Below are positions 3,136 through 35,933 of a DNA stretch of 64,000 nt, piece after piece (position 1 is the stretch's first letter; the number at the start of each line of letters is the position of its first letter). Position numbers and translations under genes: made by a program. The stretch spans positions 20,832,001 through 20,896,000 of the forward strand of contig NC_090352.1 of assembly GCF_035084215.1 (NCBI RefSeq), in the 5' to 3' direction. The DNA comes from Heptranchias perlo (lineage: Eukaryota). The notes below the pieces were generated by a model. The model made no database searches. It was not told the DNA's origin and was given only the letters and a program-made list of their open reading frames with translations.

Positions 3136-3537
<402 letters not shown>

Positions 3538-3814: not shown

Positions 3815-4160
3815 TGATGTGGAGATGCCGGTGATGGACTGGGGTTGACAATTGTAAACAATTTTACAACACCAAGTTATAGTCCAGCAATTTTATTTTA
3901 AATTCACAAGCTTTCGGAGGCTACCTCCTTCCACCAAGTTATAGTGCAGCAATTTTATTTTAAATTCACAAGCTTTCGGAGGCTACCTCCTTCCACCAAG
4001 TTATAGTCCAGCAATTTTATTTTAAATTCACAAGCTTTCGGAGGCTACCTCCTACCTCCTTCCACATCGTTCACCTGAGGAAGGAGGTAGCCTCCGAAAG
4101 CTTGTGAATTTAAAATAAAATTGCTGGACTATAACTTGGTGTTGTAAAATTGTTTACAAT
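3815..4160. mobile_element. Penelope-like element remnant (inverted pLTR fragments) with 11-bp TSD
   Basis: Flanked by TTAACAGAATA at 3804-3814 and 4161-4171; three tandem 62-bp units from 3870; 4080-4160 is the reverse complement of ~3851-3931; same 5' sequence (ATGTGGAGATGC.GTGATGGACTGGGGT) as the copies at 15218 and 35797. Confidence 0.8.
4070..4108 (+). ncRNA. Minimal type I hammerhead ribozyme
   Basis: TTCAC-CTGAGGA-A-GGAGG(TAG)CCTCC-GAAA-GC-TT-GTGAA: conserved core, 5-bp helix II, 5-bp helix I, palindromic AAGCTT at helix III. Confidence 0.72.
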
Positions 4161-5439
4161 TTAACAGAATAGGCAGACAAGTGGCAGATGCAACATAATG
4201 TGGATAAGTGTGAGATAATACATTTTGGGAGGAAAAATTAGGAGAGAGTAAACAATTAATGGGAAGATGCTGAAGGGTGTGAATGAAAAAAAGAGACCTA
4301 AAAGTTCAAATACGTAATTTGTTGAAAGTGCAAGTTCAGATAGTTTAAAATCATAAAAAAAGGCCAATAGCTTTTTTGAGATTTATAAATAAGGACATAA
4401 AGTAGAAGAGCAAAGAGATAATGATAAATTTGTGCACGGCAATAATTAGGCAACACACAGAATACTGAGAGCAGTTTTGGACACCTCGTTGCAAAAAATG
4501 CATTAAAGCCATAGAGAGTGTACAATGTAGATTCACCAAGATGATGCCATCATTTTTAAGGGAAAAGTGTATAAATATTTAAAACAGAGGAAGATGCAGG
4601 ACACTGGGGAAGAGAGCTAGTCAACTGGATCAGTTTCGGATTGCTCTAGCAAAGAGCTAGCACAGATATGATGGGCCAAATGGCCTCCTACTGTACTATA
4701 TACTTTTATAGTTCTCCATTTAATTGCTGAAAGATGCATCAGCTCATACAAAACTGTTAAGGACAAAATCAGAGGCATTTATTTTAGGTAATATGGTCAT
4801 TTTTCAAAAGTAATAGAAGCAAATTAAAAGTGAAACCTTCAGTGATCAGAGTGAAGTATCCACAAATCATAACTAGTAAAAAAAAGCTCAGCTTTAAGCT
4901 GGTGACCATTTTAGTTGCTCCATTTGCTCTGTGCTCAAATGTGAGTTTTCTAGATTACAAAAACAATATTTAGATGTTGCTTCAATTAATGGTCTGTATT
5001 TATGTAAAAGTCAAGCTCAAAATACTGAAAATACAATAATGTTTCATTATTGTCATCACAGTAAGCCACAAAGCATTCGTCACATAGTTGAGATTTCCAA
5101 ATCAATATCAGTGATTCTTGCTGCACAATCAATTCAATACAGGTGTAGAACTTCCTTTTTCCCTTGTCAAATGTCAAGTTCTTTTAAAAATGAAAATACA
5201 GTGAATTGAATAGGATTGTGTCATTAGCCCATCTTCCCATACAGCAACAGCAGACTGGACAAGGTTTCATCAATTGAAAATAAAGTAAACATTTGTTGAA
5301 GAGAAAAATACTTTTCTGCAATAGTGATAATAACTTTAATGACATCTTATCTAAAATGAAAGACTTGCATTTATAAATACAACAATTTATATGAATTATC
5401 AGAATTCTACTTCTCCTGTGACATCTGAAGGATTCAACA

Positions 5440-7905
5440 ACAACAATAATACAATTATATAGTGCCTTCAGTGTAATCAAATGTCCCAAAGTACTACCCA
5501 GGAGAAAATGACCAGAACCTGAGAAATGAAGGAAGCAGAAATAGGGCTGATGACCTCAACCAAAAAAGTAGGTTTTGAGAAGGCTTTTGAAGGAGGTGGG
5601 AGAGGTAGCAAGGCTTAGGAGAAATAGTCAAGAGCGCAGGACCAAAATGGCTGAAGGTTCTGTAGCCAAGAATGGGGCAGGCAGAAAGGGCAATGCATAG
5701 GAGGGTATAGAACCGGAAGAGCGGAGGGTGTGAACAGGACAATAGGACTGAATAAGATTGCATGGGTTGGGAGGGATAAGGCCATGATCAGAGTTGAGAG
5801 GTGAGAGTGACTGCCCTTGACATCAAGGCAGCATTTGACCGAGTGTGGCACCAAGGAGCCCTAGTAAAATTGAAGTCAATGGGAATCAGGGGGAAAACTC
5901 TCCAGTGGCTGGAGTCATACCTAGCACAAAGGAAGATGGTAGTGGTTGTTGGAGGCCAATCATCTCAGCCCCAGGGCATTGCTGCAGGAGTTCCTCAGGG
6001 CAGTGTCCTAGGCCCAACCATCTTCAGCCGCTTCATCAATGACCTTCCCTCCATCATAAGGTCAGAAATGGGGATGTTCGCTGATGACTGCACAGTGTTC
6101 AGTTCCATTCGCAACCCCTCAGATAATGAAGCAGTCCGAGCCCGCATGCAGCAAGACCTGGACAACATCCAGGCTTGGGCTCATAAGTGGCAAGTAACAT
6201 TCGCGCCAGATAAGTGCCAGGCAATGACCATCTCCAACAAGAGAGAGTCTAACCACCTCCCCTTGACATTCAACGGCATTACCATCGCCGAATCCCCCAC
6301 CATCAACATCCTGGGGGTCACCATTGACCAGAAACTGAACTGGACCAGCCATATAAATACTGTGGCTACAAGAGCAGGTCAGAGGCTGGGTATTCTGCGG
6401 CGAGTGACTCACCTCCTGACTCCCCAAAGCCTTTCCACCATCTACAAGGCACAAGTCAGGAGTCTGATGGAATACTCTCCACTTGCCTGGATGAGTGCAG
6501 CTCCAACAACACTCAAGAAGCTCGACACCATCCAAGATAAAGCAGCCCGCTTGATTGGCACCCCATCCACCACCCTAAACATTCACTCCCTTCACCACCG
6601 GCGCACTGTGGCTGCAGTGTGCACCATCCACAGGATGCACTGCAGCAACTCGCCAAGGCTTCTTCGACAGCACCTCCCAAACCCGCGACCTCTACCACCT
6701 AGAAGGACAAAAGCAGCAGGCGCATGGGAACAACACCACCTGCACGTTCCCCTCCAAGTCACACACCATCCCGACTTGGAAATATATCGCCATTCCTTCA
6801 TTGTCGCTGGGTCAAAATCCTGGAACTCCCTTCCTAACAGCACTGTGGGAGAACCGTCACCACACGGACTGCAGCGGTTCAAGAAGGCGGCTCACCACCA
6901 CCTTCTCGAGGGCAATTAGGGATGGGAAATAAATGCTGGCCTCGCCAGCGACGCCCACATCCCATGAACGAATAAAAAAAAAGTTGTAAATGAAGACAAG
7001 AATTTTGAAATTTATGTACAGGCAGATAGGCAGCCAATGAAGGTCAGCAAGCATAGAGAAATAGGGGAGTAGGACTTAGTGTGATAGGACGTTGGACCTT
7101 GTTGTTTTAGATCAATTGCAATTAGTGAAGGGCAGAACTCAAGAAGCCGGTAACAAGAGCATTTCTGGAGGTGACAAAGACATGGATAAAGGCTTCAACG
7201 GTAATCAGGATGAGGTAGAAGCAGAGGCGATCAATGTTACAGAGGTGGAAATATGTTGTCTTGGTGCTTGAAAGGATGTGGTGTTTGATGCTTAGCTTCA
7301 GGAGTTCACACTGTCAGGTTCAGTCTGAAGGAATGGCTAGAGAGGGAGGGAGTGCTAAAGTGCAGAGTTTTAAGTAGAAGCCTAAAGGAATAGCTTTGTT
7401 CTTGCTGATGTTGAGTTCAAGTACATTTTTGAGTAGTCGAGAGTGTTGTCACAGAGATGAAGTTGGTTGTCGTCTTCATGCATGTGAAAACGTGACTCTG
7501 CATGATGTCACCAAAGGACAGCATGTAGATGAGGAAAAGAAGGGGACCAAGGATGGAGTCTTGACCTTATGGAGCAGGACGAAAAACCAACATAGGAAAT
7601 GTGCTGGCTTTATTCCGACAAATAGAAGTGGATCCAGGCTGCAGCATTTACACAGGAGTAGTCCACAGAAAAGAGATGGAGGAGAAGGATGATGTTGCCA
7701 ACTGTGTTGAATGCCACAGAGGTCAAGGACAAGGAGGAGGCTGGAACATCATGGTCACAGGCACAATGCCATTGGTCAGTTTGACAAGGGTAGTTTCAGT
7801 GCTGTGGCAAGGGCAGAAACTGGAATGAAGGATTCAAAGAAGGAGTGAGGGGAGAGGTGGGTACCAACATGGATCAACAAGACATGTTCGAAGACTTTTA
7901 GAAAA
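5440..7905 (-). mobile_element. L2-clade LINE fragment, split by a younger LINE at 5797-6981
   Basis: Reverse-complement L2 tail at ~5440-5495; LADLHWLPICLYINFKILVFIY (ORF 6857-7054) continues the L2 C-terminus after the insertion; RT remnants extend to ~7900. Confidence 0.75.
5797..6981 (+). mobile_element. Young 5'-truncated non-LTR retrotransposon (CR1/Zenon-like RT), open 372-aa ORF at 5801-6919
   Basis: RT motifs LDIKAAFDRVWHQG, GVPQGSVLGP, FADD; 3' end GGGCAATTAGGGATGGG..ATAAATGC plus A-tail; putative TSD AGTTG at 5792-5796 and 6982-6986. Confidence 0.9.
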
Positions 7906-8977
7906 TGTTTGCAGAACTTCAAAGATGTTATTTAAGTGAGTTCATGGGAAAGAATTTCTTCCGGCTCTGCGGTACTTGAAAATGATCAACAGCTATGCAA
8001 AGTTTCTGAAGGAATCAATTTACAACCTATGCACTTTAGTGCAGCCATTTTTCAAGGAGAAGTCTTGAGTACATCAATAACATCGAATACAAGGCCACCG
8101 CCACACTGCATCACTTCATCTTTGTCACAGAGAATTGTTCAAAATTTAGGATTCACAATTGAGTAAGAGAGAGATTGATGCTATTAAAAGTATTGATTGC
8201 ATGGCCTCATTATACTTACGACACAATTCACTCCATCTAACTTGGCTAAAAAATAGCCTGCTAATTCTACATTTGTCTGCTCAAATATTTGAATAAAAGA
8301 GTTATTTTTCTCCAGACCCCAACGAATAAAACTGCCTGTGTGTTTACATTACACTTCAATGGTGCATAAGTAAATATGCAATTGGACGTTTTGTTATGGA
8401 AAAATTGAAAACATTTTCCTGTACAATCAAGAACGGAATCATAGCAAACATCAGAAGTGATCAAATGCAACAGCTGAGCAAGGCTCAAACATTAGAAAGG
8501 TAATTGACAGAAAATGTTCTTTCCTATGTTTGATAAAATGCAGTGAATCACCAACACGTCAGCTGAATCTAACAAAGGTATTAAGCAGACCAGCATTTGT
8601 CTCAATTCAGGTAACAGATATTAAATTTGCAGCTGTCAGATTCTGAATAAGATTCATATGAAACTGCATCCTTTTATCCCTTCAAAATTTCTATGCAGCT
8701 TTATATTATTTGTGATAGAAGTAGGAGTAGTTAGCTTAGTAGTATTAAAATAATATTAATTTCAGCCAATAAACAAACTATATTAGTTCTGTTGAGTACA
8801 ATAGTGGTACCACATTAGTTAAGCCTTTGAACAATTAAACAAGATGCAAAGTTCGTCCAAAGGCCAACTCAGTAAAGGCATCCATTGGTTTAGCTATCAT
8901 CATACAGATCATGAAGTCCAAGGTTCAATTCCTAGCACATGGAATTAGGGAAATATCACACATGGATAGAAAGATAG

Positions 8978-9312
8978 TTATCTCTATAACCTCCTCCAGC
9001 ACTACAACCCTCTGAGATATCTGCACTCCTCCAATTCTGGCCTCTTGCGCATCCCGGATTTTCATCGCTCCACCACTGGCGGCCGTGCCTTCAGCTGTCT
9101 AGGCCCTAAGCTCTGGAACTCCCTTCCTAAATACTTCTCTCTCCTTTAAGACGCTCCTTAAAACCCACTTCTTTGACCAAGCTTTTGGTCACCTGTCCTA
9201 ATATCTCATTAAGACCCAATCTTGGTGTCAAATTTTGTTTGATAATGCTCCTGTGATGCACCTTGGGATGTTTTACTACTTTAATGGCGCACTATAAATG
9301 CAAGTTGTTGTT
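8978..9312 (+). mobile_element. L2 3'-end fragment
   Basis: GGCGGCCGTGCCTTCAGCTG..TAGGCCCTAAGCTCTGGAA (GGRAFSCLGPKLWNSL) plus tail ...TATAAATGCAAGTTGTTGTT; closely similar to 35430-35770. Confidence 0.85.
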
Positions 9313-10091
9313 ATAGGACAGAAAGCAAAGGGTAAGAGGTAAAAAGAAATTTCTTAGACTGAAAAGATATGATGAGTGATGTTTCACAGGGAACATCTTG
9401 GGGTCACCGTTATTTACTATATATTTAAAAGACTTGGGAATTAAGGGAACAATATTAAAATTTATTGATGAAACCTATTAGGAGATAATAACTGCAGGAG
9501 AACATAGATAGGCCAACAAGACAGGTGGGAGATGCACTTCAATGTAAAAAAAATGAAATAATACATTTTGGATATTAGACTTAGAAAAGAAAATATATCT
9601 TGAATGGTAAGATTTTAAACAGAGTAGTGCAGCTGAGGAACCTTGTTATGCAGATACACAGACCATTAAAGGTGGTAGTTTAAGTAGATATGGCATAAAA
9701 AAGGTAAACAGAATCCTTGGCTTTGGATCTATAGGTATAGAATACAGAGGTAATGTTGAACTTGTATAAGATCTTAGGCCATAGATTTGGGATCCCCATT
9801 TTAAAAGCAATGGAAAAAGTGCAATGTAGATTCGCCTGGATGTTACCAGGGATAAGGGGGTCACACTTGAGAAGAGAAACTTGAGAAGTTATTCTTTTTT
9901 TCATTAAAGCTGAGAAGATTAGGGGATGACCTGATGGAGATCTTCAAGATCACGAAGAGTTATGGTAAGGTAAATAGCGATAGACGGTTTCCACAGGTCA
10001 ATAAGAGCGGAGTTTAGAAATAAATTCTTTACACAGAGGGTGGTTAGAATGTGGGATTCTCTGTCACAAACCATTGTTATATCGAGTCCAT

Positions 10092-10924
10092 GGGCTCTAT
10101 TTTAAAAGTTAAAAAACAGGTGGGTTAGGGGCAGGGGGGCATTGAAAATTGCCACCATTTCAGACCCGCCCCCAACCCGCCCATTTCTGGTTTTCACGGG
10201 GGCGGGATGAGGGACGGGCGACCAACCCACTCCCACGGGGCGGGTTGGGCCTTAAAACCTTTCAAGGAAGCTTCAGGCCTCCATTTTTAATAATACCCGA
10301 TTTCAACCCCGGGGGGGCCGGGATTCCTGGGCCTTCTGTTTAATGCCTCGTGAAAGGAGGCGAGGAGTCCCGAGACTGCAGGTAAGTGCCTAGAAAGGCA
10401 CAGCTTATGGGCCCGTAGGAGCAGGAGTGCTTCCTCCAGGCCCAACAAGCCGACCGACCCCGGCCACCCCCCACCCCGATCACAGACCCCACCCCCCCGC
10501 CGCCGATCACGGGCCTCCTACCCCCAGATCGTGGACCCCCGTCCCCAGACCCCCAACCCCAATCTACTGACCCCGACCCTCCCCCACAATGATCGAGGAA
10601 CCCTGATCCCGTCCCCCCATGACTGACCCCCCATCCCATCCCCCATGGTTCGCGACTCCGATGCCCATCTATGCCCACCCGTGCCCCCCCTCCCCATGCA
10701 AACAAAGACTTACCTGCAGACATCCTCTCCCTAGATGGTCTCCCAACCAACTGAGACCAGCCTGTCAATCAGCCGGTCAGTCGGACGGGAAACCAACAAA
10801 AAAAAAATAAAAGACATCCTTACGTCAAAATCGTCAGGACGTCCGGGAGACCTGTACTAATGGGTTTCCCGAGCTCAAATTGACCCTCCCGCTCCCTTCC
10901 CGGCTCTGCTTCAAAATTGAGCCC
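10092..10924. mobile_element. Non-autonomous PIF/Harbinger-type MITE (family A, copy 1)
   Basis: Termini GGGCTCTATTTT / AAAATTGAGCCC; 3-bp TSD CAT (10089-10091, 10925-10927); strongly similar to 24108-25040. Confidence 0.8.
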
Positions 10925-11079
10925 CATAAGTTTTTTAAAAAAGAGGATCAGATAGTTGCATGGAAAAGAGAAATATTAAAGGGTATGGGGAGAAAGCAGG
11001 AGAGTGGGATTAGACTAGGCTCACATTGGAGCAAATCAGCAGACAAGCCTGATGGGCCAAGTAGCCCTACAGAAGCTTC

Positions 11080-12310
11080 ATGTCAGCTTGCTGTTTGGCA
11101 GCTTGTCGCCACCCATGTTCCACTGGTGTAGTGCTATGAAGGGGATGTCTGGCGGGCTGGTATGTGTTGCCATCCTGAGAGACGGCGGTATGATGCAGCT
11201 GTGACTCTTGGGCGGCTTGGTCCTCATTATCCTCCACCACCATCAACTTCCTTCTCTTTTGCTGCCCTTAACTGTGGTGGATCTGCAGGAAAGGAGGTTA
11301 GACGCTAAGAATGGGTGAGGAATTTCCCCTTCGGATTTATGAGACAGAGAAGAGGGTGGAAGGTTGTGTCTGTATGGTACTTCAAAGGGTTGTCTGGGTG
11401 ACAGGGCAGGTGTTCAGTCAGTAACTTGGGGTGAGGAGTTTGAAGGTGGGGATGACTTTTTTGGCCGGCATTGTGTGCCAATTTGTCCTGCAAGGAAATA
11501 GAGTGAAAGAGGGTAAGGTTGGCAGGTGAAGAGTTTGTACCAAATGGCATGGGAGAGGTGAAATAAGAGATGTGGGGGTATGAGGCTGTTACAGCAGAGG
11601 AAGAGGTTTTAGGGTTGTAAGTTATTCCTGTGAGGGGAATTGGGTAGTTATAGTGCAAGATGCCAAGTTGGAGCCCCCCCTTAATCAAAGAGCACTGTGT
11701 AAGGTTAGTTGAGCAAGTATTGCTTTAAGAGGGTGAAGAGTGTGCTGGTGCCCAGCTTGGGCAAGGAAGAAGAGGGAAAGGTACAGTGTTACCTTACCTG
11801 CCCTGATGAGGATATGGAACTTTTGGTGGCACTATTCTGGGAATGAGGGAATTGGCAGTCAGTGCCAGTTCCAATTCCCTCTAGGTGGCACAAGCGATAA
11901 TTCTGGGTAAATTGGTGGTACCCAAAGCCAGCAGTCTGTTTGTCCTGCTTTCGGTGCCCTCCAGGAGGGCTTGGAGTTTTGAATGAATGAAGTTGTGCAT
12001 TCTTCTCTGGCTTGGTTTCATGTCCTGCTGCTCTTTGGGCACAGATGGCGTTTGAGTGTTTGTAATTCTGTACAAGTATAAGAAAAAAAATTGCTTTGTT
12101 CTTAAAGACTGCACAGAAGTTCCAGGTAGTTCAGCTGCTTACACCTGTTTTACATCAATGGAGATGCAAACGGGCAGACCCAGGAAACTCATGTGTATCT
12201 CCCTCTAGAAAAGGTGCAACATGTAAGTCATTTTGAGGAAATTTTAGACCTTTATCTGATGTTTTCTGTATTCTGTGTAGGGTCTCTCTGCAGTTCAACT
12301 GCTGGGTAAT
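11080..12310 (-). mobile_element. Degenerate Harbinger remnant with Myb/SANT-like exon
   Basis: Minus strand QRRMHNFIHSKLQALLEG...QCHQKFHILIRAG then a GTAAG donor near 11796, the layout of Harbinger Myb-like ORFs; boundaries approximate. Confidence 0.5.
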
Positions 12311-13254
12311 ATCTATCATGGCTCTTTCTAGCTGATGTTTTCAGGAGTTATGTGTTTTAACAGCAAATAATCTACTTAATGGCAGAGCAAGGCATGCAAC
12401 CAAATAAAATCTGCCACTCACCAGTTACTAACAATCCACACTTTTCCCTGTTAATTATTCACCGACCAGCTAATTCACCATTAGGAATGGAAGCAAACTA
12501 TTGAGTGATGACAATGGCCAACAGACACAGCATTAGATTCTGGCAAGTATCCATGTCATCGGAAACACATTTAACAAGGTTTTTTTAAACTCAGGTGTCA
12601 GATCCTTGAGGAAGTATTCAGTGATGACTCATAGCAGCTCCTTTATCTGATTCCATCAAAATCCCTGGAAATGTTTTTCTGGACTATTTTACAGTTTGCA
12701 ATCAATCTTTGCACATATTATTGAGTTAAATACGTATAACTGAAGACAAATACTGTCCTGCAACTATACTTTAAAAATTCAATTATCGGTTTAAATTAAT
12801 GAGATTTTAAATTTAATCAAAGAAAAATATGCTGACTTGTTTTGTTTAATAGCACTTATTTGATATGATTATTCTTGCATAGTCTTGAAACAAATGGCAA
12901 TCTTTTCTGCTTAATTATTCAATAGCACACCCACGTCTGGCTTGCTACTACTGTGACTTAAACTCATTTAACATCAATGTTATAGATTTAAGATCTTGTA
13001 GAGCTCCATGTCAGAATATGCCAGAAATGTGATTAAGTATCAGTCTTTTTTTCAACTGCAGCACACTAAACAAGGCTCTCAAGCTCATAGACAAAGCTGA
13101 CATGATACCCAACTCATTCAGAGTTACCAAGGAGCGTTGTAGACAATCACTTCAGCTGAATTAATAGTCCAGTCATTCCCATTGTAGAAAGTATCTACTG
13201 AGATGAATGGCTATGGCAGGAGAATAGTCCAACAATAACAAATTGAACCAAGGA

Positions 13255-13560
13255 ATCTTTAGTTGACACATCATAATCCTTCAGATGAGACCATAACCTG
13301 AAATCCCATCTGCTTGTTCTTATGTTTCAGATGCATGTTAAAGGCCCCATAGCACTATTCGAAAAGGAGCAGAGATTTCTCTCAGTGTCGTAGCCAAAAT
13401 ACCTCCCTCAAATTATGCCATCAAAGAAACAAAATCACTGGTCATTTACCTCATTGTTGTTTGAGAGATATTACTGGCATGGAATAACTGTTGTGTTTAT
13501 GCTACATAAAAACAGTCACTAAGCTTCAAAAGTAAATGATTGTGTGAAGTGCTTTGAGAT
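13255..13560 (+). mobile_element. Old Deu-core SINE fragment (SacSINE1/AmnSINE1-like)
   Basis: CCTTCAGATGAGACCATAAC...CCCATAGCACTATTCGAAAAGGAGCAG...CTGGTCATTTACCTCATTG, homologous to the SINEs at 17815 and 30795. Confidence 0.6.
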
Positions 13561-15217: not shown

Positions 15218-15464
15218 TGATGTGGAGATGCCAGTGATGGACTGGGGTGGACAAATGTAAGGAATCTTACAACACCAGGTTATAGTCCAACAAATTTATT
15301 TTAAAATCACAAAAATTTGATTGGTGTGATGCTGTCCCAACATAGTATAAGATATGCGATTTGAGAACCTTTTCATTCATTCATCTGACGAAGGAGATAA
15401 TCTCCGAAAGCTTGTGATTTTAAAATAAATTTGTTGGACTATAACCTGGTGTTGTAAGATTCCT
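15218..15464. mobile_element. Penelope-like element remnant with 12-bp TSD, nested in the Harbinger
   Basis: TSD CAGATTTATCTA at 15206-15217 and 15465-15476; perfect ~53-bp inverted arms at 15260-15312 and 15412-15464. Confidence 0.82.
15381..15417 (+). ncRNA. Minimal type I hammerhead ribozyme
   Basis: TCAT-CTGACGA-A-GGAGA(TAA)TCTCC-GAAA-GC-TT-GTGA; helix II closes with A-U where the copy at 4070 has G-C. Confidence 0.72.
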
Positions 15465-25040: not shown

Positions 25041-25958
25041 ATTAAATTTGCCTCATACAGTGGGCTTATATCTCTTGCCTTTGGGCATGCTAAGAAATTT
25101 TTATCTTCTAAAGTCAGACACAAAAGGTAGCCCTAACAAGCTTGTCAGATTTTGTTTCCCGTGGCTATGAGTCGATGTCAGCTTGTACTTCCCCGTTGTG
25201 TCAGGCATCAGGTATAGTTTACTCTCCTTGAGTCATTTGTTAATTGCTTCTCTCGTTGCAAACATTAGATCTAATTCATCAAGGTGTTAGCAAGCAACAA
25301 TATTGCAAGTAAATAACTAGAACCCAGTCAACATGGAAATTTAAGCTGAAATCTATTCTAGTTCTCCAATATAGTAGGTCCTAGGTAAGGGTTGAAGCAT
25401 TCGGAGGGAAGAGTGATTGAGAGGTTGTGGGGAGGGGGTTATTGGGTGAGGGGCCACACAGGGGCCAGTAATGGTCTCTGGCACTGCAGTGAACCCAGGA
25501 AGAGCACATTCTTTTAAAAGTTACCTTTTTGGTGGCGGCCTCCAGCTGTCCCTTTAAGGACCACACGTACACCATGGTTTCCTGCTCAAGTGAGCAGCCC
25601 AATTTTGCAAAGGGTGCCTCAAACAGGCGTTAAGCCCCTATTTGCATATACAAAGAACCCAACACCTGTATCAGGCACAGGCCTTAGACGCCTCTTTTTC
25701 TGACTTCACTAATATGGCGGGTGGCACACTCCCAGCGCTTAATAAGCCGTGCGGCCCGACTGCCATATTGGATACTTAGGCGCCTGTTTTGCGCTTAACA
25801 AACGGGCACAACGCATTGAATTTCTCGATATGACACCAGACGAAATCGGTTCGAGACCTCCTGGAGGAGGAAGTCTCACTCCACTTTGCTTGAGATTCAG
25901 CTCCCGTCTTCACACCAAATTTAGACTCCAAGCAGTTTCAGCTTGACACTGACACTAA

Positions 25959-27675
25959 GGCCCCGATATTACCAGGGAGGCGGGTTGGCAGCGGGGGGTT
26001 GACTGGGCGTGTGGGTAACCCACCCAGTAAAATCGGTGGGTTCTCCATGCAATCACGAATAAATTGAAGCCACTTACCTTGGCTTCCGGGTTTCCCGTTG
26101 GAAACCTGCACAGTGGGCGGACTGCGCACCCGCATCACAGGCTGTCAGCTGGAGGAGTCCTATTTAAAGGGGCAGTCCTCCAATGCTGCTTCTGCAGCAA
26201 ACAGCCAAAATTACAGCATGGAGAAAGGGGAAAGGCTGCTCCCAGGTTTAATGATGCCTCACTCCAGGTCTTACTGGATGGGGTGAGGAAGAGGAGAAAG
26301 ATCTTCTACCCGGCGGACAGGAGGAAGTGGCCTGCCTCTGCCATCAAGAAGGCCTGGCTCGAAGTGGCAGAGGAGGTCAGCAGCACCACCAACATATCAC
26401 GCACCTGGATACAGCGCAGGAAGCGCTTCAATGACCTAACTAAGTCAGCCAAAGTGAGTACACTTACTCATTCTCCTACACTCCGTCTTCCACATCACCG
26501 CCCCCACCCCACAACTCCTTCTGCACTGCCAACACTACTCTATCACATCACTCCTCACACCCACTCAAACCTCATCCTCAACTTACCTGCACTAACTCAC
26601 CTCGCCAGTACTCATCCCACCACTACCACTCAACCCAATCCTCATACAATCTCATGGCTCTGTCTCATACTCACCCTCTGCTGCATCTATTTCACGGTCA
26701 CCCTCACCCAACTTGCCACTACCTCTGCTGCAGCCACAGGGGATGCATCACGTATGAGTATTAGGAAGCGTAAGGCAAAGGTTTCATGAGCACAAAGGGG
26801 ATGCACAAGGGTGTTTGACGGTTTGTCATGTTTTTTTATTTATATTTGATTTTGGTTCAACTCACATTAAATATTATTATTGTCACCACGACTGCCACGT
26901 CTTGGCCGTTCTTGATTGGCTTGTGCAATAAGTCCCTTTCATGAGGTTCTCCATGAACACCCACACTTGATGCCACCCATTGGGTCACCCTACAGTGGGT
27001 GTACGTGTAGTTGCACGACTATTTTGTGCAGGTGCCTGTGGCGCAGCACTGTGTGGAGCTCCACGTGGCAGAGGTGGACGGCGTGCCTGGTGATGTTGCT
27101 CTTCCTCGGATGAAGTGATGAATGCAGCTATGGCGCCCCCCCACCATCCTGACGGTGTGAGTTTGAGAGGGTCCGCAAAGTAGATAAATGTGTTCGCACA
27201 GCAGAGTTTAGGGTATAAATTAATAATTTTGAGTGGAAAGATAAAGGTATTGCAGCCAAAACTTTGTCTGAAGTGACAGAGTGCCCTCCTGCAATAAATG
27301 AAGTATTCCCCCAACTGTCAAAAAATTCTTTGCATCTCCCACTGGCTGCTGGCTGAAACATATCTGCTCCAACGGGGAGTGTTTCCCACAGCACGGGAAA
27401 CAAGCTGAGGATCCATGAAAATTGCACCCCTGCCAAAATCTCCTGTCAATGAGGTCTGTCAAGTACCTCAACTAAGTAAATAAGTATTTAAATTATCATC
27501 CTGCCGGCTTTAATTGCTGGTGGGAGTCCCGCATGCGGGAGCTGCGTGCTCATCCGAACGCATCGCTGGGGAACCCGGAAGTGGGCAGGCTGGAGCCGGG
27601 CTCCGGACCCGCTCCGGGATTCCCCGATTTTACGAGCCCCCAACACACCTGCTCGGCCATCCTAAAATTGACCCC
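25959..27675. mobile_element. Internally deleted Harbinger transposon with a well-preserved Myb/SANT exon
   Basis: TAA on both flanks (25956-25958, 27676-27678); ends GGCCCCGATATT / AAAATTGACCCC; + strand KAAPRFNDASLQVLLDGVRKRR..KKAWLEVAEEVS..RTWIQRRKRFNDLTKSAK followed by GTGAGT at 26454. Confidence 0.85.
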
Positions 27676-27744
27676 TAAACCTTCACAGCATGAATGCATT
27701 GTTACATGCAGCCTCTCATTTTTCATTCTATCTCCTACTTCTTC

Positions 27745-28260
27745 CACATTGTAAACTTCATCCATGCCATTGTCACCTCAACGTTCAACTTCTGCAGTAC
27801 TCTCCTTACCAACCTCCTGAGTTCCATCCTATATAAGCTCCAGCTCATCCAAAACTCCACTGTCCACATCCTATCCAGCACTAAGTCTTGCTCCTCTATC
27901 ATCCTGTACGGGTCAACCTCCATTGACTCCCTATCCCCTAATGCATTGCATTCAAATTCCTTGTCTTTGTTTACAAATACCTCCACAACCTTTTTCCTGC
28001 TCACCTCTGCAACCTCTTACATCCACTTCCTCTGCTTTTTCACCTCTGGCCTCCTTTGCATCACCCTCTACCTTCAGTGATTGAGCATTCAGCCGACTTG
28101 ATCTCACCCTCTGCAATAATCTATCTACCTCTCTCCTCTCCGTCAAATGCCTCCTCGCAATGAACTCTTTGACTATGACTTTTGTGGCCTACCCTAACAA
28201 ATCTTTCACTGCTTGGTCTCTGTTTTTGTCTCTGCAAAGTAGTTGGGATGTTAAATTCAC
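27745..28260 (+). mobile_element. Degenerate L2 3' fragment
   Basis: FIHAIVTSTFNFCSTLLTNL..KLQLIQNSTVHILS (ORF 27694-28080) is the L2 ORF2 C-terminus. Confidence 0.7.
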
Positions 28261-28694
28261 TAAATCAGCTAATGAGCCATAAAAAGAACACTTCATTTGA
28301 CAAATAGTTGCACATGTTCACACCTTTTTAACCTTACAGCTCAGGGCTTGGGAGAATGACATTAAAAGTAGTTCTCTGCTGTCCTCAGCTTTACAAAGGT
28401 CTGGCAATTTATGGTCAAGGAGGGTGGCTGACAGCAAGAGAACCACTCGCCTTCAGTCCATAGCACTCTAATACTATAAAAGTACCTTAGTAAAGAATGC
28501 TGCTCGGTTTGTGTAACCTATGGCACTTCTTTGTTGGTTGGAATTATGATTAAAAATTCCAGACACCATTTTCTTAAATTAAAGGTTATTAGTTTCCAAA
28601 AATCATAATAATTCCAGCAATTAACAATAAGAACTAAGAATCATCAAAATTCAATAACCTTTGATAATAAACAATGTAATATCACTACCACTAG

Positions 28695-29830
28695 TAGGGA
28701 GTAGACCCAAGATGGCTGAAGTCTTTACCACAAAAAGCAAAGCAGCAAAAAGTGGAATGTATCAAAAGGCCAGTGTCAGGGCATTGGAGGGCATAGAATG
28801 GGATGCAAAACTGGAGAAGGTTGCAGAGATAAGGTGGGGTAAGTCTACGGAGGGATTTATAGTTGGACACAAATTTTAAATTCAAACCACTGAGGGATGG
28901 GCATCCAGTGTTGGTCAACATGGGTAGAGTGATGGGTGAGTGGGCTTACTGCTGTACCGAATCCAGGAAGCAGAGCTTTGGGCAATTTGGAACTTATAGA
29001 TATGGAGTTTGGAAGTCTGTCAAGGAAGTTTTCTGCAGGGCAGAAATTAGACGTACTGGCAATAGCGTGGCAGGAAAGTGGAATGGTACTTGTTTTCGTC
29101 GGGTTTCTGCCTCTTCCTCACTCCCATATGAACTTCTGATGGGTAGAGATGGGTGTTTCTTCCACCCAATCACCCTGATGTGACTTCAGTGGGAACGTCC
29201 AGCTAATCCTGAGTTTCTCCAGAAATTCTGCTATTTATACCTCTATAAAGCCAGCGGTAAACCATTGACACTCAAATGTGGGACCCATCTGTGAGTGAGG
29301 AACAGAAAAAAGATGTGAGTCACTTTCCTGTCCCCCACCCCCCCAACCCCCGCCTCCCCACCATGATGGAACTGCTCTGAAATCCCACCAGGTCCATGAG
29401 CAGGTACTCCATTAGCAGTGGTACTGGAGTGAGGCCCCACTCCTAATATTTAAATTACCCCATTCCTGGAAGTTGGGATGTGATCCCAATTAGGTCAGGC
29501 AGCTAGGATTAAATTCCGCACTGGGCACTCCCAATGGTGCAACTGTGCTGCTGGAATTTTCAGGCCAACCAGTTCAGAGGTGCTGAAGGTATGGATAGCA
29601 GTGGTGGGATTGAGGTAATGATAGAGATGGGCAATGGTGCGGAGGTGGAAGTAAGTGGTTTTGGCGATAGATAGATTTTGAGGTTTGAAATTCAAATCTG
29701 GGTCTAATAGAATATCAAAATTGTGTGTAGTCCAGTTCAGCCTGAGCAAAGAGTCAGGGTTGGGCATGCAGTTGATAGCATAGGCACAGAATTCTTGGCA
29801 GGGGTTGAAAATGATGGCTTGAGTTTTCCT
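28695..29830 (-). mobile_element. Degenerate L2 fragments interrupted by a MITE-like segment at ~29030-29560
   Basis: Minus strand KSLRRLTPPYLCNLLQ and DPDLNFKPQNLSIAKTTYFHLRTIAHL..IHTFSTS are L2 motifs. Confidence 0.6.
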
Positions 29831-30489
29831 ACGTTTATACCTTGAGAATCTTATTTTTTAGCAGGTTTCACTTTACTCCCCAGCTCAATAATTTTAACTA
29901 AATAGCACTTGACATCTCAGAAAGTTTGAGCATTTCAGCATTATTAACTCTAAAACCTCACAATACGTAATTATCAACAAGTCATACTTTTGAAGTTAAG
30001 GCCATCTTGACCTTGATTCATAATATCACCACCAGGTTTCACCCACCACTGTGCTTGCTGCTCCTCTCTCTCAATGCCACTCCTTTTTTGGAGCCACTGC
30101 CTGTCACAACATTGGCTAGTGCATCCCAGTTGTAAACATCGGCTTTGCTCCTCTCTAAGCTCTGATCACACTTCCACTAATACCAGTGTCGCACCCTGCT
30201 GAATGCTGGTCAGACTTCCTTGAGAATCCTGCTCCCACAGAAAATGACAGTCCCGCATCAGACCTCCTTGTAAATATTGTCTCCACTCCTCTCTAAACTT
30301 CAGTCCTTTTCCCTGCTAATGCCAGTCCTGCTCCCTTGAAAACTCTGCTTCTACAGAAAATGGCAGTTCCCTCTCCAAATGCAGCACCTATGACTGATGC
30401 TGCTGCCCAATCAGACAGCTGTGGTATTATCAATCATGTTGAACGGGCGAAGAGCTGCACTCGAGCGACAGGAGAGCTGCATTTGACTT

Positions 30490-30745
30490 GTAAGCTGGCC
30501 TTGCTGTGCTTTATAAATGCAAGTTGTTGCTGCCTAGGCCCTAAGGTCTGGAATACCCTCCTTAAATCTCTCCGCCACTTTACCTCTTTCTCCTCCGTTA
30601 AGATGCTCCTTAAAACCTACCTCTTTTGGTCACCTGTCTTAATATCTCCTTATGTGGTTCAGTGTCAAATTTTGTTTGATAACGGTCCTGTGAAGCACCT
30701 TGGGACATTTTACTACAGAAAAGGTGCTATATAAATGCAAATTGC
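30490..30745 (+). mobile_element. L2 3' tail, with a second tail stub just upstream
   Basis: CTGCCTAGGCCCTAAGGTCTGGAA...GCACCTTGGGACATTTTACTAC..GGTGCTATATAAATGCAA. Confidence 0.8.
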
Positions 30746-30794
30746 TATTTTTCTTGATCATAACACTGTCCAACATCTTGCTGTCTTTGATCAG

Positions 30795-31187
30795 TGTCAT
30801 TTTGGCTCAGCTGTTAGCCTCTGAGTCAGAAAGTTGTTGGTTCAAGCCGCACTCCAGGACTTAATCTAGGCTGACACCTCATAGACTGCTGCCTTGCCAG
30901 AAATGCTGTCTTTTAGCTGGTCTCTGTTCAGGTGGACGTAAAAGAGCCCATGGCACCATTTGAAGAATAGCAGGGAGTTTTTCTGGTATCCTGGCCAACA
31001 TTCCTTCCTCAACTAACACCGCCAGAAAAGATAAACTGGTAAGTTATTTTATTGCTGTTTATGAGACCTTGTTGTGCACAAATTGGCTGCCACGTTTGAC
31101 TACATTTCAAAACCACTTCATTGGCTGTGAAGTACTTTGGGATGTCCTGAGGACATGAAAGGCACGATATAAATGCAAGTTCTTCCT
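30795..31187 (+). mobile_element. Deu-core SINE (SacSINE1-like)
   Basis: A box TGGCTCAGCTG, B box GGTTCAAGCC, Deu core and TATAAATGCAAGTTC tail; homologous to 17815-18262 in the opposite orientation. Confidence 0.8.
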
Positions 31188-31849
31188 TACAACAACCATC
31201 AACATGAAACTGATGTGATTGTTCAGTACTTTGCACCACCCAACATTATCCCACTGCTCACATTATAGGACCATCTTCAGCACCACCAACTGAGCATCAG
31301 AGCATTTCCTTTCTTATCAGTCAGCAACACGGGAAGAAGTCTATGTTAGAGGATTTCTGCACTTCTTTGAATGATATTTCGCTAAGATGTAGTTAATATT
31401 CCGTGTCACTGATAAGCTTGGAAACATCTGCCAATTTTTTTTAAAGCCTTGACAGTTCAATAACATTAAAATGCAGCTATTTAACTTGCCCAAGGCTTCT
31501 GCAGTATGCATTGATTTAATGCTTGAAGCAGAAACTGATCTCTGCGCACAAAACTGATTTGCATACATTTGCATACAGAGAAGCAATAATGAGAACATGT
31601 TTCCGAAGTATGCATACCTGGCCTGCATAAAAATTGTAGATGGGCCGTTTAGTAAAATATTTATATCATGAAAGGCTTTATTTACTACCAGTGCAAATGA
31701 TTTCCATCCTATCATAAGAATAACAGTGTCATTAATTTAAAAGTATCCGTTCTGTGCAAGAAAAAGGTTAAAAACACTTGTGCATTATTAGCTGCGATTA
31801 CTGATAGCTAATAAAAATCTAAATGAATGAATTTTAAAAAGTCTTAGAA

Positions 31850-32741
31850 ATACTCAGCTGATTACATGCTTCTGTCAAGGAGCAGTAATCGCAAGGAGCG
31901 CTGTTCTGAACATTGCAGGCATCGATTTTCCATCCACTAATTTCAGTGATCAGAAAATCAGGGGCTGCAGGCCCGCAATTTCTTGACTAGCATAGCCTGT
32001 GGGTGCTGCTCCCTGCTGCGAGCACCCGATCAGGAAATCAGCACTACCAGTCACATTTTGTTCAAATTTGTCTAAATTTCCTCGATCTGACTTGCACCAA
32101 AATTTACTCCAGTTTCTATGCCGATCTTACCAATGGCAACTTATGCCTAAATTGCCTGAGAATCTCATTAGTATACGCCAGACTGCTAAAGCCAGCGTAA
32201 AACGAGCAGAAATCAGCGTAAACAACCGGGGCCTGAGAAAAGCACGGATCATACGCTATCGTCTTACTTGAAGCCCCTCTTTATCTTGATGCTATGAAAA
32301 TGAAAGATTGACGCGATCAAACCATCATTTATGCACATTAAGCGCAGTAGCCTGGAACTTCCTGCACATTTTCGCCCAGAAACACACATAATGGAGGCGT
32401 AAAGCAAATACGCAGCCTAAAAAAAAATCACTATAAATTCATTATAAGACACTAGAAATAGGAACTTCGGGGTCATGCTGCATCTAAAATTTTGGCCGTA
32501 AATGCAGGAAACATGAATTCTCTAGTCTTTTGCGTGGCGGCAGAATTATATTAATGAGTTAAGTGGGGTTTTGACAGACATAACTTTGGAGCCATGCAAA
32601 TGGTTAAGGAAATTCGTGTGTAACAAGGTTCTGCCATAAAACCAGCATAAGTCACTTACCCGCAGATTTCCTTGGAAAAACGTGGTGCAATGTGGCTCTT
32701 ACGCCAATGTTGCACCAAAAATTACAAGGAAATTTCAGGCC
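31850..32741. mobile_element. Probable non-autonomous DNA transposon fragments (Harbinger-like)
   Basis: CpG-richer block; GCCTGGAACTTCCT at ~32350 and AGGAAATTTCAGGCC at ~32727-32741 form an imperfect inverted pair. Confidence 0.4.
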
Positions 32742-33392
32742 TATGAATTGCTTTCCAAACTAAGTTGTATGGTTGTGCATTATTATTTTTTATCGTTATC
32801 TTATAGTTCTTCATTGCCGCTGTCATGCATTATTTCCTATTCAGGAAGATGGGTAGATGACCCATTCCAGGGCTCTGCCATTTCTATAACATAACTGGAA
32901 GTTGAGAACAGTAGCCCTAAGTGATTCTCTCACCAATTTCTCTCCCTCAAAATGTTTAATCTCTACAAGGTGCCACTACCAGACAGACCTGAGAGAGTAA
33001 GAATTTGCTGTGTGTTATAAGGTCTTTATTAATTAGTTTTAAGTTTTAAAGATGGATCTGTCAATTACTGAACTGGAACGGTCCACATTTCATTATGCAG
33101 GCTTCATAATTAGAATTGAGGAATATAGAGTGAAGGAAAGGGCTAACTTTGCCCCTTTGGACGTTACATTTGGACATTGTAAGTTTAAACTATTGTGGTG
33201 TGTAAATTGAATGTCAAGGCCCTAATGGATTCCGAATGAAGCAGTGTGAAACTTCTTCCAATATGCTGCCTTGCTCCAGTGTTAGTCTGGACCATGACTC
33301 TGGATTCAGGCTTAATTTACAATATAACTGAAAAGTGTCCGTGCAAAGCAAAACCACTTTGCACTGATACTACAGTTGTAGCGTGAATGGAA

Positions 33393-33858
33393 TAGAATCA
33401 TAGAAAGGTTACAGCACTGAAAGAGGCCATTCGGCCCATTGAGTCCGTGCTGGCTCTATGCAAGAGCAATCCAGCTAGTCCCACTCCCCCGCCCTTTCCC
33501 CGCAGCCCTGCAAATGTTTTCCTTTCAAGTACTTATCCAGTTCCCTTTTGAAGGCCATGATTGAATCTGCCTCCACTACCCCCCTCAGGCAATGCATTCC
33601 AGATCCTATCGACTCGCTGTGTAAAAAGGATTTTCCTCATATCACCTTTGGTTCTTTTGCCAATCACCTTAAATCTATGTCCTCTGGTTCTTGACCCTTC
33701 TGCCAATGGGAACAGTTTCTCTCTATCTACTCTGCCGAGACCCTTCATGATTTTGAATACCTCTCTCAAATCTCCTCACAACCATCTCTGTTCCAAGGAG
33801 AATAACCCCAGCTTCTCCAATCTATCCACATAACTAAAGTCCCTCATCCCTGGAATCC
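33393..33858 (-). mobile_element. CR1 LINE 3' fragment
   Basis: PGMRDFSYVDRLEKLGLFSLEQR; EVFKIMKGL.RVDREKLFPLAEGSRTRGHRFKV; TTCTATGATTCTA tail. Confidence 0.9.
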
Positions 33859-34715
33859 TGAGGGCCCAAAAAAACCTAAGATTGACAAAATTGCAGTGAA
33901 GTCTTGCATTTACACTTTGGATACATAATTCATAGTAAACACCATGGCCCCAATTGGCATCATGACTCCTAGTAAAAAGAAGTACAACACATGTTTTTAT
34001 AAATGAGATCAAAAAGGAAGTGCTCCGATATTGATACATTTGAATTAGTTGAAGTCAAGTTCTTTTGTTCAGGTGCAAAAAGCAGCTTTACCTCAATTTT
34101 AAAAAGATCAGAGAGAGAAAGGCAGACAACACTAGACTGGGACCAAGACTAAGATCGACTGAAGCAGAAAAAAGTTTAGAAAAAGAAATTGTTTTTTCAG
34201 AGAGAAGTTTGACAATTATCATGTCAGGTGGACTGAATAACAAATGTTTTCAAAGTATAAATATGATAGAGTAACAGTTGAAGAGAATCAGAGAAGATCT
34301 CTGATCCATTGCAAACAAAGGACAATTGTGAAGGACTCACAGAGGACCAAACCTTCATACCATAATGAACATATTGTAGATAGGGACATAACCAGCATAT
34401 TGTAGAAAGAGATGGAAATAGTCAGAGAGAAGGATTCAATTTTGACCAATTATGTGATTATTTCTGGAGCAAAGAGATTGTAATCCTTTCTATTAGTACA
34501 ACAGACTTAAATAGAAAGCATATGATATTAGTAATGTTGCTATGCAAACTGAAAAAACTCCCTGGAGTGTAATTCTCAAAACCAAATACTGACCTATGCT
34601 ATGTTAAATTAAGCCCAGCTAAGATCGTACTTCTGTAATGCTGAAATGAATTATGCGTCATAACAAACTATTGAAACGGCTGTGAATATTATTTTGATAA
34701 TCAGGCTGCATGTGT

Positions 34716-35775
34716 CTATCCAGTCGCAGCCAGGGAATCACCTGCAATGGTTTCTCTTCCCGCTCTCGCACTGTTACTTCTGGAGTACCCCAAGGATCTA
34801 TCCTTGGCCGTCTCCAATTTCTCATCTACATGCTGCCCCTCTGTAACATCATCTGAAAATACATCAGGTTCCACATGTACGCTGATGACAACCAGCTCTA
34901 CCTCACCACCAACTCCGACAACCCCTCCACTGTCTCTAATTTGTCACACTGCTTGTCCAACACCGGATGAGCAAAAATTTCCTCCAACTAAATATTGGGA
35001 AGACCGAAGCCATTGTTTTCGGTCCCTGCCACAAACTCCGTCCCCTAGCCACCAGACCGTTTGCAACCATGACGTCCTTTTTGACCCTGAAATGAGATTC
35101 CAACCACATATCCACTCCATCACCAAGACCGCCTCCGTTACATCGCCCTGCCTCATCTCATCTGTTGCTGAAACCATCATCCATGCTTAATTACCTCTAG
35201 ACTTGATTATGCCAATGTTCTCCTAGCCGGCCTCCCATCTTCCACCCTCCACCCTCCATAAACCTAAGCTCCTCCAAAACTCTGCTGCCCATATCTTAAC
35301 TTGTACCAAGTCCCGTTCACTCATCACCCCTATGCTCACTGACCTACATTGGCTCCCAGTGGGGGAATGCCTCAACATTAAAATTCTCATCCTTGTTTTC
35401 AAATCCCGCCATAGCCTCGCCCCTCCCTATCTCTGTAACCTCCTCCAGCCCTACAACCCTTCGAGATCTCTGCGCTCCTCCAATTCTGACCTCTTGCGCA
35501 TCCCCAATTTTAATCCCTCCATCATTGGCGGCCGTGCCTTCAGCTGCCTAGGCCCTAAGCTCTGGAATTCCCTCTCTAAACCCCTCTGCCTCTCTACCTC
35601 TTTCTCCTCCTATAAAAGCACCTTTAAACCTGCCTCTTTGACCAAGCTGCGGTCTTAATATCTCGTTATGTGGCTTGGTGTCAAATTTTGTTTGAATACG
35701 CTCCTGATAAGCGCTTTGGGATGTTTTACTATGTTAAATGCGCTATATAAATGCAAGTTATTGTTGTTGTTGTTG
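34716..35775 (+). mobile_element. L2 LINE RT/3' fragment
   Basis: SGVPQGSILG, YADDNQLYL, LTDLHWLPV..KILILVFKS..GGRAFSCLGPKLWNSL; tail TATAAATGCAAG followed by (TTG)n. Confidence 0.9.
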
Positions 35776-35796
35776 TGGTGGTGTAGTCAATAAATA

Positions 35797-35933
35797 ATGT
35801 GGAGATGCTGGTGATGGACTGGGGTTGACAATTGTAAACAATTTCACAACACCAAGTTATAGTCCAACAAATTTATTTTAAATTCCACAAGCTTTCGGAG
35901 GCTTCCTCCTTCCTCAGGTGAACGGTGTGGAAA
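35797..35933 (-). mobile_element. Penelope-like pLTR fragment (single arm)
   Basis: Near-identical to 3817-3931 and extends through the complete hammerhead; no convincing TSD. Confidence 0.8.
35884..35922 (-). ncRNA. Minimal type I hammerhead ribozyme on the DOC2B sense strand
   Basis: Reverse complement reads TTCAC-CTGAGGA-A-GGAGG(AAG)CCTCC-GAAA-GC-TT-GTGGA (helix I with one G-U pair). Confidence 0.7.

Follow-up and report, generated by a model that had tools for sequence, protein, structure and literature searches.

Hammerhead-bearing insertions in a DOC2B-like intron of Heptranchias perlo as likely by-products of a Penelope-like element

Within the 64,000-nt stretch of Heptranchias perlo DNA analyzed here (the window), three minimal hammerhead ribozyme motifs lie in short insertions (stubs) that likely arose from short cDNAs as by-products of a Penelope-like element (PLE) that carries an endonuclease, is abundant, and was recently active, with the copies themselves predicted to be noncutting passengers. 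The original prediction had described a distinct ORF-less family and had overlooked the inverted arms, tails, target-site duplications (TSDs), and 3 × 62-nt tandem reported below. A separate family of that sort is unsupported; the stubs, 96 to 139 nt in length, show the standard truncated and inverted layout of PLE insertions.

Results

All three motifs read helix I-CUGA(G/C)GA-A-helix II-GAAA-GC-UU-helix I', with a helix II of 5 bp closed by a 3-nt loop. A descriptor scan of both strands of the window returned exactly three matches, at the places originally predicted, against a mean of 0.09 and a maximum of 2 in 200 dinucleotide shuffles. A stricter descriptor gave two matches in the window and zero in all 200 shuffles; copy 2 was missed because its helix I is 4 bp. 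Neither a scan loosened to tolerate one core mismatch nor a profile search found additional copies in the window. The core (C3-U4-G5-A6-N7-G8-A9 plus G12-A13-A14-A15.1) was intact in every copy, as were the unpaired A between positions 9 and 10.1, the G10.1-C11.1 pair, and an AGCU palindrome (15.1-16.1) with no stable helix III and CUU as the NUH site. Variation was seen in 8 of 39 columns and in none of the 13 core columns (P = 0.025; three copies). An outer helix I pair is broken in copy 2 (U.U), and the combination of a spared core with at most one broken pair had P = 0.002 under post hoc criteria.

Other parts of the original description fared less well. The covariation assigned to helix II comes down to one G-C/A-U swap in one of the three sequences, which 164 of 500 shuffles equaled and which is not significant, and the supposed G-U wobble in helix I of copy 3 aligns instead as a 1-nt G insertion. 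No Rfam hammerhead model matched at E ≤ 1 across the whole window or at E ≤ 10 for copies 1 and 3. Rfam miRNA and snoRNA matches in the window scored far below gathering and were set aside as chance hairpins. The assignment to Penelope-type minimal type I hammerheads, including the palindromic helix III region, the extra A after A9, and the predicted cut after CUU, agrees with the consensus in Fig. S3 of PMC4209133.

The motifs are embedded in insertions of recognizable structure (Table 1). The TSD of copy 1 is an exact repeat of 11 bp, a length equaled or exceeded in 1 of 1,500 random site pairs, and excision of the insertion restores a LINE-type RT frame that is collinear with 49618-49770 (45% identity, E 1e-9). 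Its inverted arm alone carries a tail, of 36 nt (3814-3849), which is missing from the forward arm, and the two arms share 4 nt of microhomology at their junction. Each 62-nt unit holds only the helix II-GAAAGCUU-helix I' half, without the CUGA box, and the units are nonfunctional as hammerheads. In copy 2, the inverted arm starts at U16.1, placing its 5' end 0 to 2 nt from the predicted cleavage site, where its two U's are ambiguous with the adjoining T-run. The middle segment of copy 2 had no above-chance match elsewhere in the window or in up to 2 kb of flanks; an origin as flank-templated DNA was unsupported within the window, the best exact match there being 10 nt, a length that 196 of 500 shuffles reached or exceeded. 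For copy 3, neither an inverted partner nor a TSD was found, and its 5' end falls at the same place as that of the copy 1 forward arm (within ~4 nt; 11 to 16 nt upstream of C3).

Table 1. Positions in the window of the motifs, their insertions, and the host intron
Feature	Position	Strand	Remarks
Minimal hammerhead motif 1	4070..4108	+	C3 of CUGANGA at 4075; predicted cut 4103/4104
Minimal hammerhead motif 2	15381-15417	+	C3 at 15385; predicted cut 15413/15414
Minimal hammerhead motif 3	35884..35922	-	C3 at 35917; predicted cut 35889/35888
Copy 1 left TSD, 11 bp	3804..3814		Exact repeat at 4161-4171
Copy 1 inverted arm	3814..3932	-	Begins inside hammerhead core, without CUGA; 83/83 identical to forward arm
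Three 62-nt tandem units	3870..4053	-	TRF: 3.0 copies, 98% matches
Copy 1 forward arm	4060..4161	+	5' end 11-15 nt upstream of C3; no tail
Copy 1 right TSD	4161..4171		Exact repeat of left TSD
Copy 2 left TSD, 12 bp	15206..15217		Exact repeat at 15465-15476
Copy 2 inverted arm with 43-nt tail	15217..15312	-	53/53 identical to forward arm
Copy 2 middle segment, 67 nt	15313..15379		Putative element leader or filler DNA
Copy 2 forward arm carrying motif 2	15380..15464	+	
Copy 2 right TSD	15465..15476		Exact repeat of left TSD
Copy 3, single 139-nt arm with tail	35794..35932	-	97/103 identical to copy 1 forward arm
44,136-nt GT-AG intron of DOC2B-like gene, containing all three copies	3437..47572	-	

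Overall, two of the three insertions have an inverted head-to-head arm, two have a TSD (11 and 12 bp), and whole inserts comprise the pLTR only, at 271 to 368 bp including TSDs. Arms and TSDs are identical within copies 1 and 2 (94/94 and 65/65; 95% upper bounds of 3.1% and 4.5% divergence), and these two insertions, at minimum, are therefore young, as the claim of recent mobility holds. Between copies 1 and 2 the difference is 10 to 19%, so that most differences between copies predate insertion, and these differences spare the hammerhead core. Across seven aligned arms and units, 5' starts lie at -15, -5, +2, +4, and +27 relative to C3, and 3' ends also differ. The target sites of copies 1 and 2 have flanks in common (CCAC-[TSD]-GGCA), a weak lead at n = 2; the 5' start common to two copies and the one arm beginning at the predicted cut are likewise weak leads (n = 1 to 2).

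As isolated 39-mers, the motifs gave pair probabilities of 0.76 to 1.0 for helix II and 0.77 to 1.0 for inner helix I; folding z-scores of 61-mers were not significant (-1.56, -0.28, and -1.05). When whole insertions were folded, helix I had a probability of 0.0 in both copy 1 and copy 2 and of 0.0 to 0.21 in copy 3, and none of the three copies is predicted by the model to fold as a hammerhead in its genomic context. Two monomers were more stable than a designed double-hammerhead fold by 2.5 to 2.7 kcal/mol, and an inactive dimer was more stable than that fold by 9 to 13 kcal/mol, under an energy model that ignores tertiary contacts. Cutting activity of the three motifs is a prediction from sequence.

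Judged by read depth, the family appears very abundant: in run X1, which may derive from the source of this DNA, word depth summed to 2.3 to 4.3 million over 35805-35930 compared to 2.7 to 36 in the flank, a measure that is not a copy number. Sequencing runs of two further organisms, from a single study, also contained related sequence, and one contig spans the whole motif with two differences; one contig of another organism also ceases to match at 35933. Single contigs jump back from 35919-35922 to 35886-35893. At 35891, the sole motif position listed in the contig table, 0.07% were changed in X1 versus 3 to 16% at 35883-35886; this contrast was set aside as evidence because the table appears selective and hides positions near alignment ends and because the comparison sites flank an indel. 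Motif pattern scans of prokaryote genome, viral, and metagenome contig collections gave no matches. A 20-mer had two bacterial matches, by our estimate about the chance expectation; neither carries a hammerhead, and both were discarded. Of the 156 reading frames of at least 45 aa within 2.6 kb of the stubs, 144 were searched, and none of these matched a GIY-YIG family.

The exons bordering the host intron (47573-47682 and 3310-3436) splice in frame, and their best PDB match is DOC2B C2A (E 1e-18 and 7e-21). Motif 3 is oriented sense to the host pre-mRNA. Trans-cleavage of this pre-mRNA by copy 3 at the copy 1 half-units, which lie 32 kb downstream, is feasible in geometry (-12.2 kcal/mol) and was rejected as a function, given the distance between the sites and the much greater stability of an inactive duplex (-30.6).

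Discussion

The minimal hammerheads of metazoan PLE pLTRs (Cervera and De la Peña 2014, PMC4209133) share with these motifs CUGANGA-H, G10.1-C11.1, GAAA, and NUH, a palindromic 15.2-16.2 region without loop III, an open helix I of 4 to 6 bp, an AU-rich 3' flank, and occurrence as dispersed single copies in the thousands; in Fig. S3, the turtle (Chrysemys) row matches the G-C/U-U helix III and cleavage letters found here. In contrast, helix II is here 5 bp with a 3-nt loop, the stubs have no linked ORF, no cartilaginous fish occurs among the examined rows of that figure, and the sequence of this family does not appear there. An extra A10 between A9 and G10.1 is also found in the CChMVd (+) hammerhead (PMC3705267), where it moderately lowers trans-cleavage, although that is a canonical viroid ribozyme. 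The layout of 5'-truncated arms, inverted head-to-head copy, one-sided tail, and short TSD is that of endonuclease-bearing PLE insertions (PMC8557442; PMC3846280), although the rotifer examples have TSDs of 8 to 10 bp rather than 11 to 12 bp, the published tail of 30 to 40 nt makes that of copy 2 slightly long, and the inserts here are confined to the pLTR. Since the stubs have no ORF, the clade (Neptune or Poseidon) is not assignable. The Poseidon element PAc of green anole (Frangieh et al. 2024, PMC11167929) likewise has its hammerhead about 100 to 120 nt upstream of the copy end, and its two reverse transcription start sites, which define the tail, together with extension of both target strands, predict the layout seen here; its ORF starts in helix II, and its cleavage needs protein. 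PLEs and retrozymes have already been reported in chondrichthyan genomes (for retrozymes, 10.64898/2026.07.22.740005). Our literature check found nothing on PLE hammerheads in sharks or on CUU triplet rates.

An autonomous PLE would be expected to leave stubs of ~100 to 140 nt through short cDNAs, and we infer such an element as their parent. Its GIY-YIG/RT protein would make a staggered cut 11 to 12 bp apart, producing the duplications of copies 1 and 2, and each DNA end would serve as a primer for copying the element RNA from either of two start sites, by analogy with the anole element (PMC11167929). A spacing of 36 to 43 nt between these sites is proposed as the reason that only one arm has a tail. 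Synthesis may have covered only about 50 to 140 nt, through the hammerhead-bearing pLTR/leader, after which the cDNAs of copy 1 would have been joined head to head by microhomology, with slippage yielding the 62-nt tandem, and those of copy 2 across the 67-nt segment. In the master elements, selection presumably keeps the hammerhead, and a cut after CUU would occur only in a two-copy or protein-assisted fold in which the AGCU palindrome serves as a shared helix III; cutting is probably unnecessary for insertion. Counting against this by-product reading are the lack of a PLE ORF linked to the stubs and of an inverted arm or TSD in copy 3, along with the slightly long tail of copy 2, the nonsignificant helix covariation, the lack of an Rfam hammerhead match, and the unfavorable double-hammerhead fold; the near-identical start of copies 1 and 3 is also explicable by a short nonautonomous element.

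Such an element, self-propagating, SINE-like, ~140 nt long with fixed ends and copied in trans by PLE protein, would amount to the ORF-less family of the original prediction and is distinctly improbable. The seven arms and units begin and end at differing points, every fold-back is differently built, as expected of assembly at landing, and neither a promoter nor a tRNA-derived head was seen (ARAGORN, 0 genes), even though no ORF lies nearby and pLTRs are able to work in cis on cargo of other origin (PMC3846280). The start common to copy 3 and the copy 1 forward arm, and the contig of another organism whose match ends at 35933, would suit fixed ends; run-off where the RNA of an autonomous element begins at its 5' end would account for a fixed start just as well. 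Descent as a monomer from a non-LTR retrozyme, whose tandem hammerhead repeats self-cleave, circularize, and reinsert, is highly improbable. Retrozymes (PMC7229834; 10.64898/2026.07.22.740005) are also noncoding, hammerhead bearing, PLE related, and present in vertebrate genomes, and the latter source reports them in the sole chondrichthyan genome that it sampled and links them to PLE pLTRs. The copy 1 tandem and the contig jumps, which resemble head-to-tail motif repeats, recall such arrays; however, retrozyme arrays consist of complete, mostly canonical hammerheads and are expressed as circles, whereas the motifs here are solo and minimal rather than canonical type I. No two complete hammerheads are consecutive, because CUGA is missing from the 62-nt units, which are also on the other strand from the intact motif, and the layout of tail, inverted arm, and TSD belongs to PLE insertions.

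A further alternative concerns function and is compatible with a PLE origin: that the motif, whether a relic that has lost catalysis or a hairpin that binds protein and has a hammerhead-like sequence, never cleaves in this animal. We regard this as possible, if doubtful. Retention of 13 of 13 core positions in lineages differing by 10 to 19% argues against it, as does the anole PLE hammerhead, which cleaves with protein and shows C3/G8 rescue (PMC11167929). In that same element, however, hammerhead mutants still insert in vitro, making cleavage dispensable there, and no RNA-seq ends were seen at the cut site; eight of nine Xenopus retrozyme dimers tested failed to cleave (10.64898/2026.07.22.740005). 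A dead motif would also fit a monomer without helix III, a modeled active dimer that is not favored, and covariation that is not significant. Minimal hammerheads described so far either cleave weakly when dimeric or need the protein of the element (PMC4209133; PMC11167929), and the role of PLE hammerheads is described as unclear (PMC8557442).

Under the by-product reading, the known pairing of ribozyme and retroelement extends to another vertebrate family, which has little significance as it stands. A rather unlikely elaboration is that the stub ends form a fossil map, in which the shared start 11 to 16 nt upstream of the core would mark the 5' end of uncut RNA, the copy 2 inverted arm would have been copied from RNA cut after CUU, and the CCAC-[TSD]-GGCA flanks would reflect a sequence-guided double nick. 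If true, the copy 2 arm would be evidence of a metazoan minimal hammerhead cleaving in vivo during transposition. A family that is young, very high in copy number, and rich in fold-back stubs would allow target motifs and the positions of 5' ends to be counted genome-wide, as a way of asking whether reverse transcription in vivo ever uses cut RNA.

Three hammerhead motifs within one host intron

Reading of the sequence bore out the original prediction of three hammerhead motifs (copies 1 to 3), and a both-strand descriptor scan of the window recovered exactly these three, compared to a mean of 0.09 and a maximum of 2 in 200 dinucleotide shuffles. When the descriptor was tightened, two remained in the window versus none in all 200 shuffles, copy 2 being lost because of its 4-bp helix I. 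Neither loosening the scan nor searching with a profile brought up additional copies in the window, and no Rfam model recognized the motif. The predicted invariance of the core held, with none of 13 core columns varying and 8 of 39 columns varying overall (hypergeometric P = 0.025); in a simulation, a spared core with at most one broken pair had a probability of 0.002, under criteria picked after the data were seen. The covariation claimed for helix II reduced to a single G-C/A-U change in one of the three sequences, at the pair that closes the loop, a level that was reached in 164 of 500 shuffles, and the copy 3 helix I change previously read as a G-U wobble aligns as a one-base insertion.

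All three copies lie inside one 44,136-nt intron, whose flanking exons are in frame and have DOC2B as closest solved relative; judging by these exons, the host is a vertebrate. Relative to the host pre-mRNA, copy 3 is sense and copies 1 and 2 are antisense. Myb/SANT-like frames and a peptide resembling a transposase suggest PIF/Harbinger relics, and copy 2 may have landed within one. Two LINE-type reverse transcriptase (RT) fragments appear to represent another, fairly young retroelement family.

Features located in the window
Feature	Positions	Strand	Remarks
Motif 1	4070-4108	+	
Motif 2	15381-15417	+	
Motif 3	35884-35922	-	
Copy 1 insert	3804-4171		Flanked by 11-bp direct repeats
Copy 2 insert	15206-15476		Flanked by 12-bp direct repeats
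Copy 3 insert			One 139-nt arm with tail
Copy 1 target flanks	3800-3803/4172-4175		CCAC/GGCA
Copy 2 target flanks	15202-15205/15477-15480		CCAC/GGCA
DOC2B-like C2A domain, two consecutive exons	47573-47682 and 3310-3436	-	44-kb intron between, filling most of the window
Myb/SANT-like frames (PF13873, E = 1e-7 and 0.04) and transposase-like peptide	26031-26786, 14481-14645, 15806-16189	+, +, -	
LINE-type RT fragments	5798-6919 and 37414-38232	+	About 95% alike across 300 nt, 31 kb apart
Tandem array	41700-44745		C-rich, 3 kb; 32-nt unit x 71 plus variants; extreme strand skew
Second tandem array	61963-62196		22-nt unit x 10.6

Anatomy of the inserts

Copies 1 and 2 each consist of two arms joined 5' end to 5' end, and direct repeats as long as those flanking them occur in 1 of 1,500 random site pairs. 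An extra tail of 36 (copy 1) or 43 (copy 2) nucleotides is present on the left, inverted arm and missing from the right arm. Excision of copy 1 restores a LINE-type RT frame, which aligns through the junction with another window fragment (45% identity, E = 1e-9); the boundaries of this copy are therefore right. Its arms meet at a 4-nt microhomology, and its inverted side also contains three 62-nt tandem units without the CUGA box. A 7-nt direct duplication (4046-4059) lies at this joint beside the tandem, both being signs of repeated template slippage while the arms were joined. The arms of copy 2 are separated by 67 nt, for which no source was found in the window; this segment (15313-15379) folds as a hairpin, resembles by eye a loose-end consensus that sequencing run X10 has upstream of the motif, and may be element leader. 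Neither an inverted partner nor a duplication was found for copy 3.

Two arms begin 11 to 16 nt upstream of C3, the first C of the CUGANGA core. The inverted arm of copy 2 starts 0 to 2 nt from the predicted cut, at a joint blurred by a T-run; we estimate a chance of roughly 10% for one start in a 3-nt window (five independent starts, about 140 nt), and regard this start as a weak lead toward a cleavage trace. The empty target sites of copies 1 and 2 both read CCAC, the duplication, and GGCA, and among about one million site pairs drawn at random, 0.018% shared at least 8 flanking bases (P about 2e-4; post hoc, n = 2). Copy 3 is without these flanks. Both CCAC and GGCA also occur within the element's tail. 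The flanks may reflect a target preference. We consider it quite improbable that the stub ends (the termini of these short inserts) are traces of cleavage in vivo and of target cutting that was guided.

Comparison with Penelope-like elements

Cervera and De la Pena (PMC4209133) set out what marks the minimal hammerheads of metazoan Penelope-like elements (PLEs): the core; a G10.1-C11.1 pair, separated from position 9 by an unpaired base; a palindrome at 15.2-16.2; and the absence of loop III. The window motifs share all of these sequence features, and their helix III and cleavage letters are those of the turtle row in that account. The extra A falls within that PLE consensus and is also present in CChMVd (PMC3705267), in line with what the original prediction states for some natural viroid hammerheads. 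The same account reports that single copies lie scattered by the thousand in fish, coelacanth, and frog, that monomers did not cleave, and that multimers cleaved at low levels. PLE insertions are described as frequently 5' truncated, with an adjoining inverted copy, a 30- to 40-bp one-sided tail, 8- to 10-bp duplications, solo pLTRs (terminal repeats), and an ORF whose start is overlapped by the pLTR and tail (Craig et al., PMC8557442; Arkhipova et al., PMC3846280). For the anole PLE protein, Frangieh et al. (PMC11167929) report that both target strands are nicked and extended, that reverse transcription starts at two internal sites bounding the tail, and that the hammerhead requires protein to cut and is not needed for insertion in vitro. 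Retrozymes, as characterized in PMC7229834 and 10.64898/2026.07.22.740005, require consecutive complete motifs; the window copies lack this arrangement, and a retrozyme identity is considered very unlikely.

Proposed mechanism and predicted activity

Copies 1 and 2 show duplications, head-to-head arms, and one-sided tails, and the cores are intact in all three copies. We propose that a PLE protein would cut both target strands 11 to 12 bp apart. Reverse transcription would then be primed from each DNA end at either of two sites on the element RNA and would proceed for 50 to 140 nt across the pLTR/leader with its hammerhead, after which the cDNAs would be joined where they land. The stubs are thus most likely by-products of an autonomous element. 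Of the original prediction, the Penelope-type minimal hammerhead stands on its sequence features, but the covariation and a separate ORF-less family are not supported.

The master transcript would be the site of ribozyme action, either through a fold in which two copies share the AGCU palindrome or with the aid of protein. Nearest-neighbor energies for copies 1 to 3 were -20.7, -14.5, and -19.7 kcal/mol for the active dimer, -23.4, -17.2, and -22.2 kcal/mol for two monomers, and -33.2, -25.2, and -28.5 kcal/mol for an inactive dimer; by these values, the active dimer would not be favored in naked RNA. Folds of read-through RNA predict that the genomic copies are inert: inverted arms abolish helix I in copies 1 and 2 (probability 0.0), and helix I of copy 3 loses to its own leader or tail (probability 0.0 to 0.21). 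Such predicted inertness would fit the tolerance of copy 3 at an intronic site in sense orientation. The first 7 nt of the copy 3 leader (35932-35926, minus strand) pair perfectly with 35889-35883, just past the cut (probability 0.75), a pairing that could serve as an off-switch; in copy 1, without the extra G, helix I prevails (0.98). In all copies, the stretch before the tail (35830-35870, minus strand, in copy 3) has a pyrimidine run followed by CCCCAG, similar to the consensus of a 3' splice site, and the copies end in CAT/TAT just ahead of a possible ORF start position. Speculatively, the motif could lie inside a 5'-UTR intron, as in Drosophila virilis Penelope.

Abundance and divergence of the family

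In sequencing run X1, summed word depth was 2.3 to 4.3 million across 35805-35930 versus 2.7 to 36 in adjacent flank; this depth is not a copy number, and X1 is possibly the source of the window DNA, but it indicates a very abundant repeat. Single contigs of X1 and another run, X5, contain joints that jump from 35919-35922 back to 35886-35893, which suggest that the motif is repeated head to tail at other sites of the genome, separated by short spacers; such repeats are candidate cis dimers. Related sequence was present in runs of two other organisms from one study, where one contig spans the whole motif with 2 differences; true relatives were sought in prokaryotic, viral, and metagenomic collections, and none were found. 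No GIY-YIG frame was detected among the 144 scanned of 156 frames within 2.6 kb, the other 12 overlapping a LINE RT.

Arms plus duplications are identical inside each insertion (94/94 and 65/65; 95% upper bounds, 3.1% and 4.5%), whereas between copies, identity is 94% for 1 and 3 and 79 to 90% for 2 against the others. Most between-copy differences therefore predate insertion, and we infer that they arose in source lineages, where selection could act.
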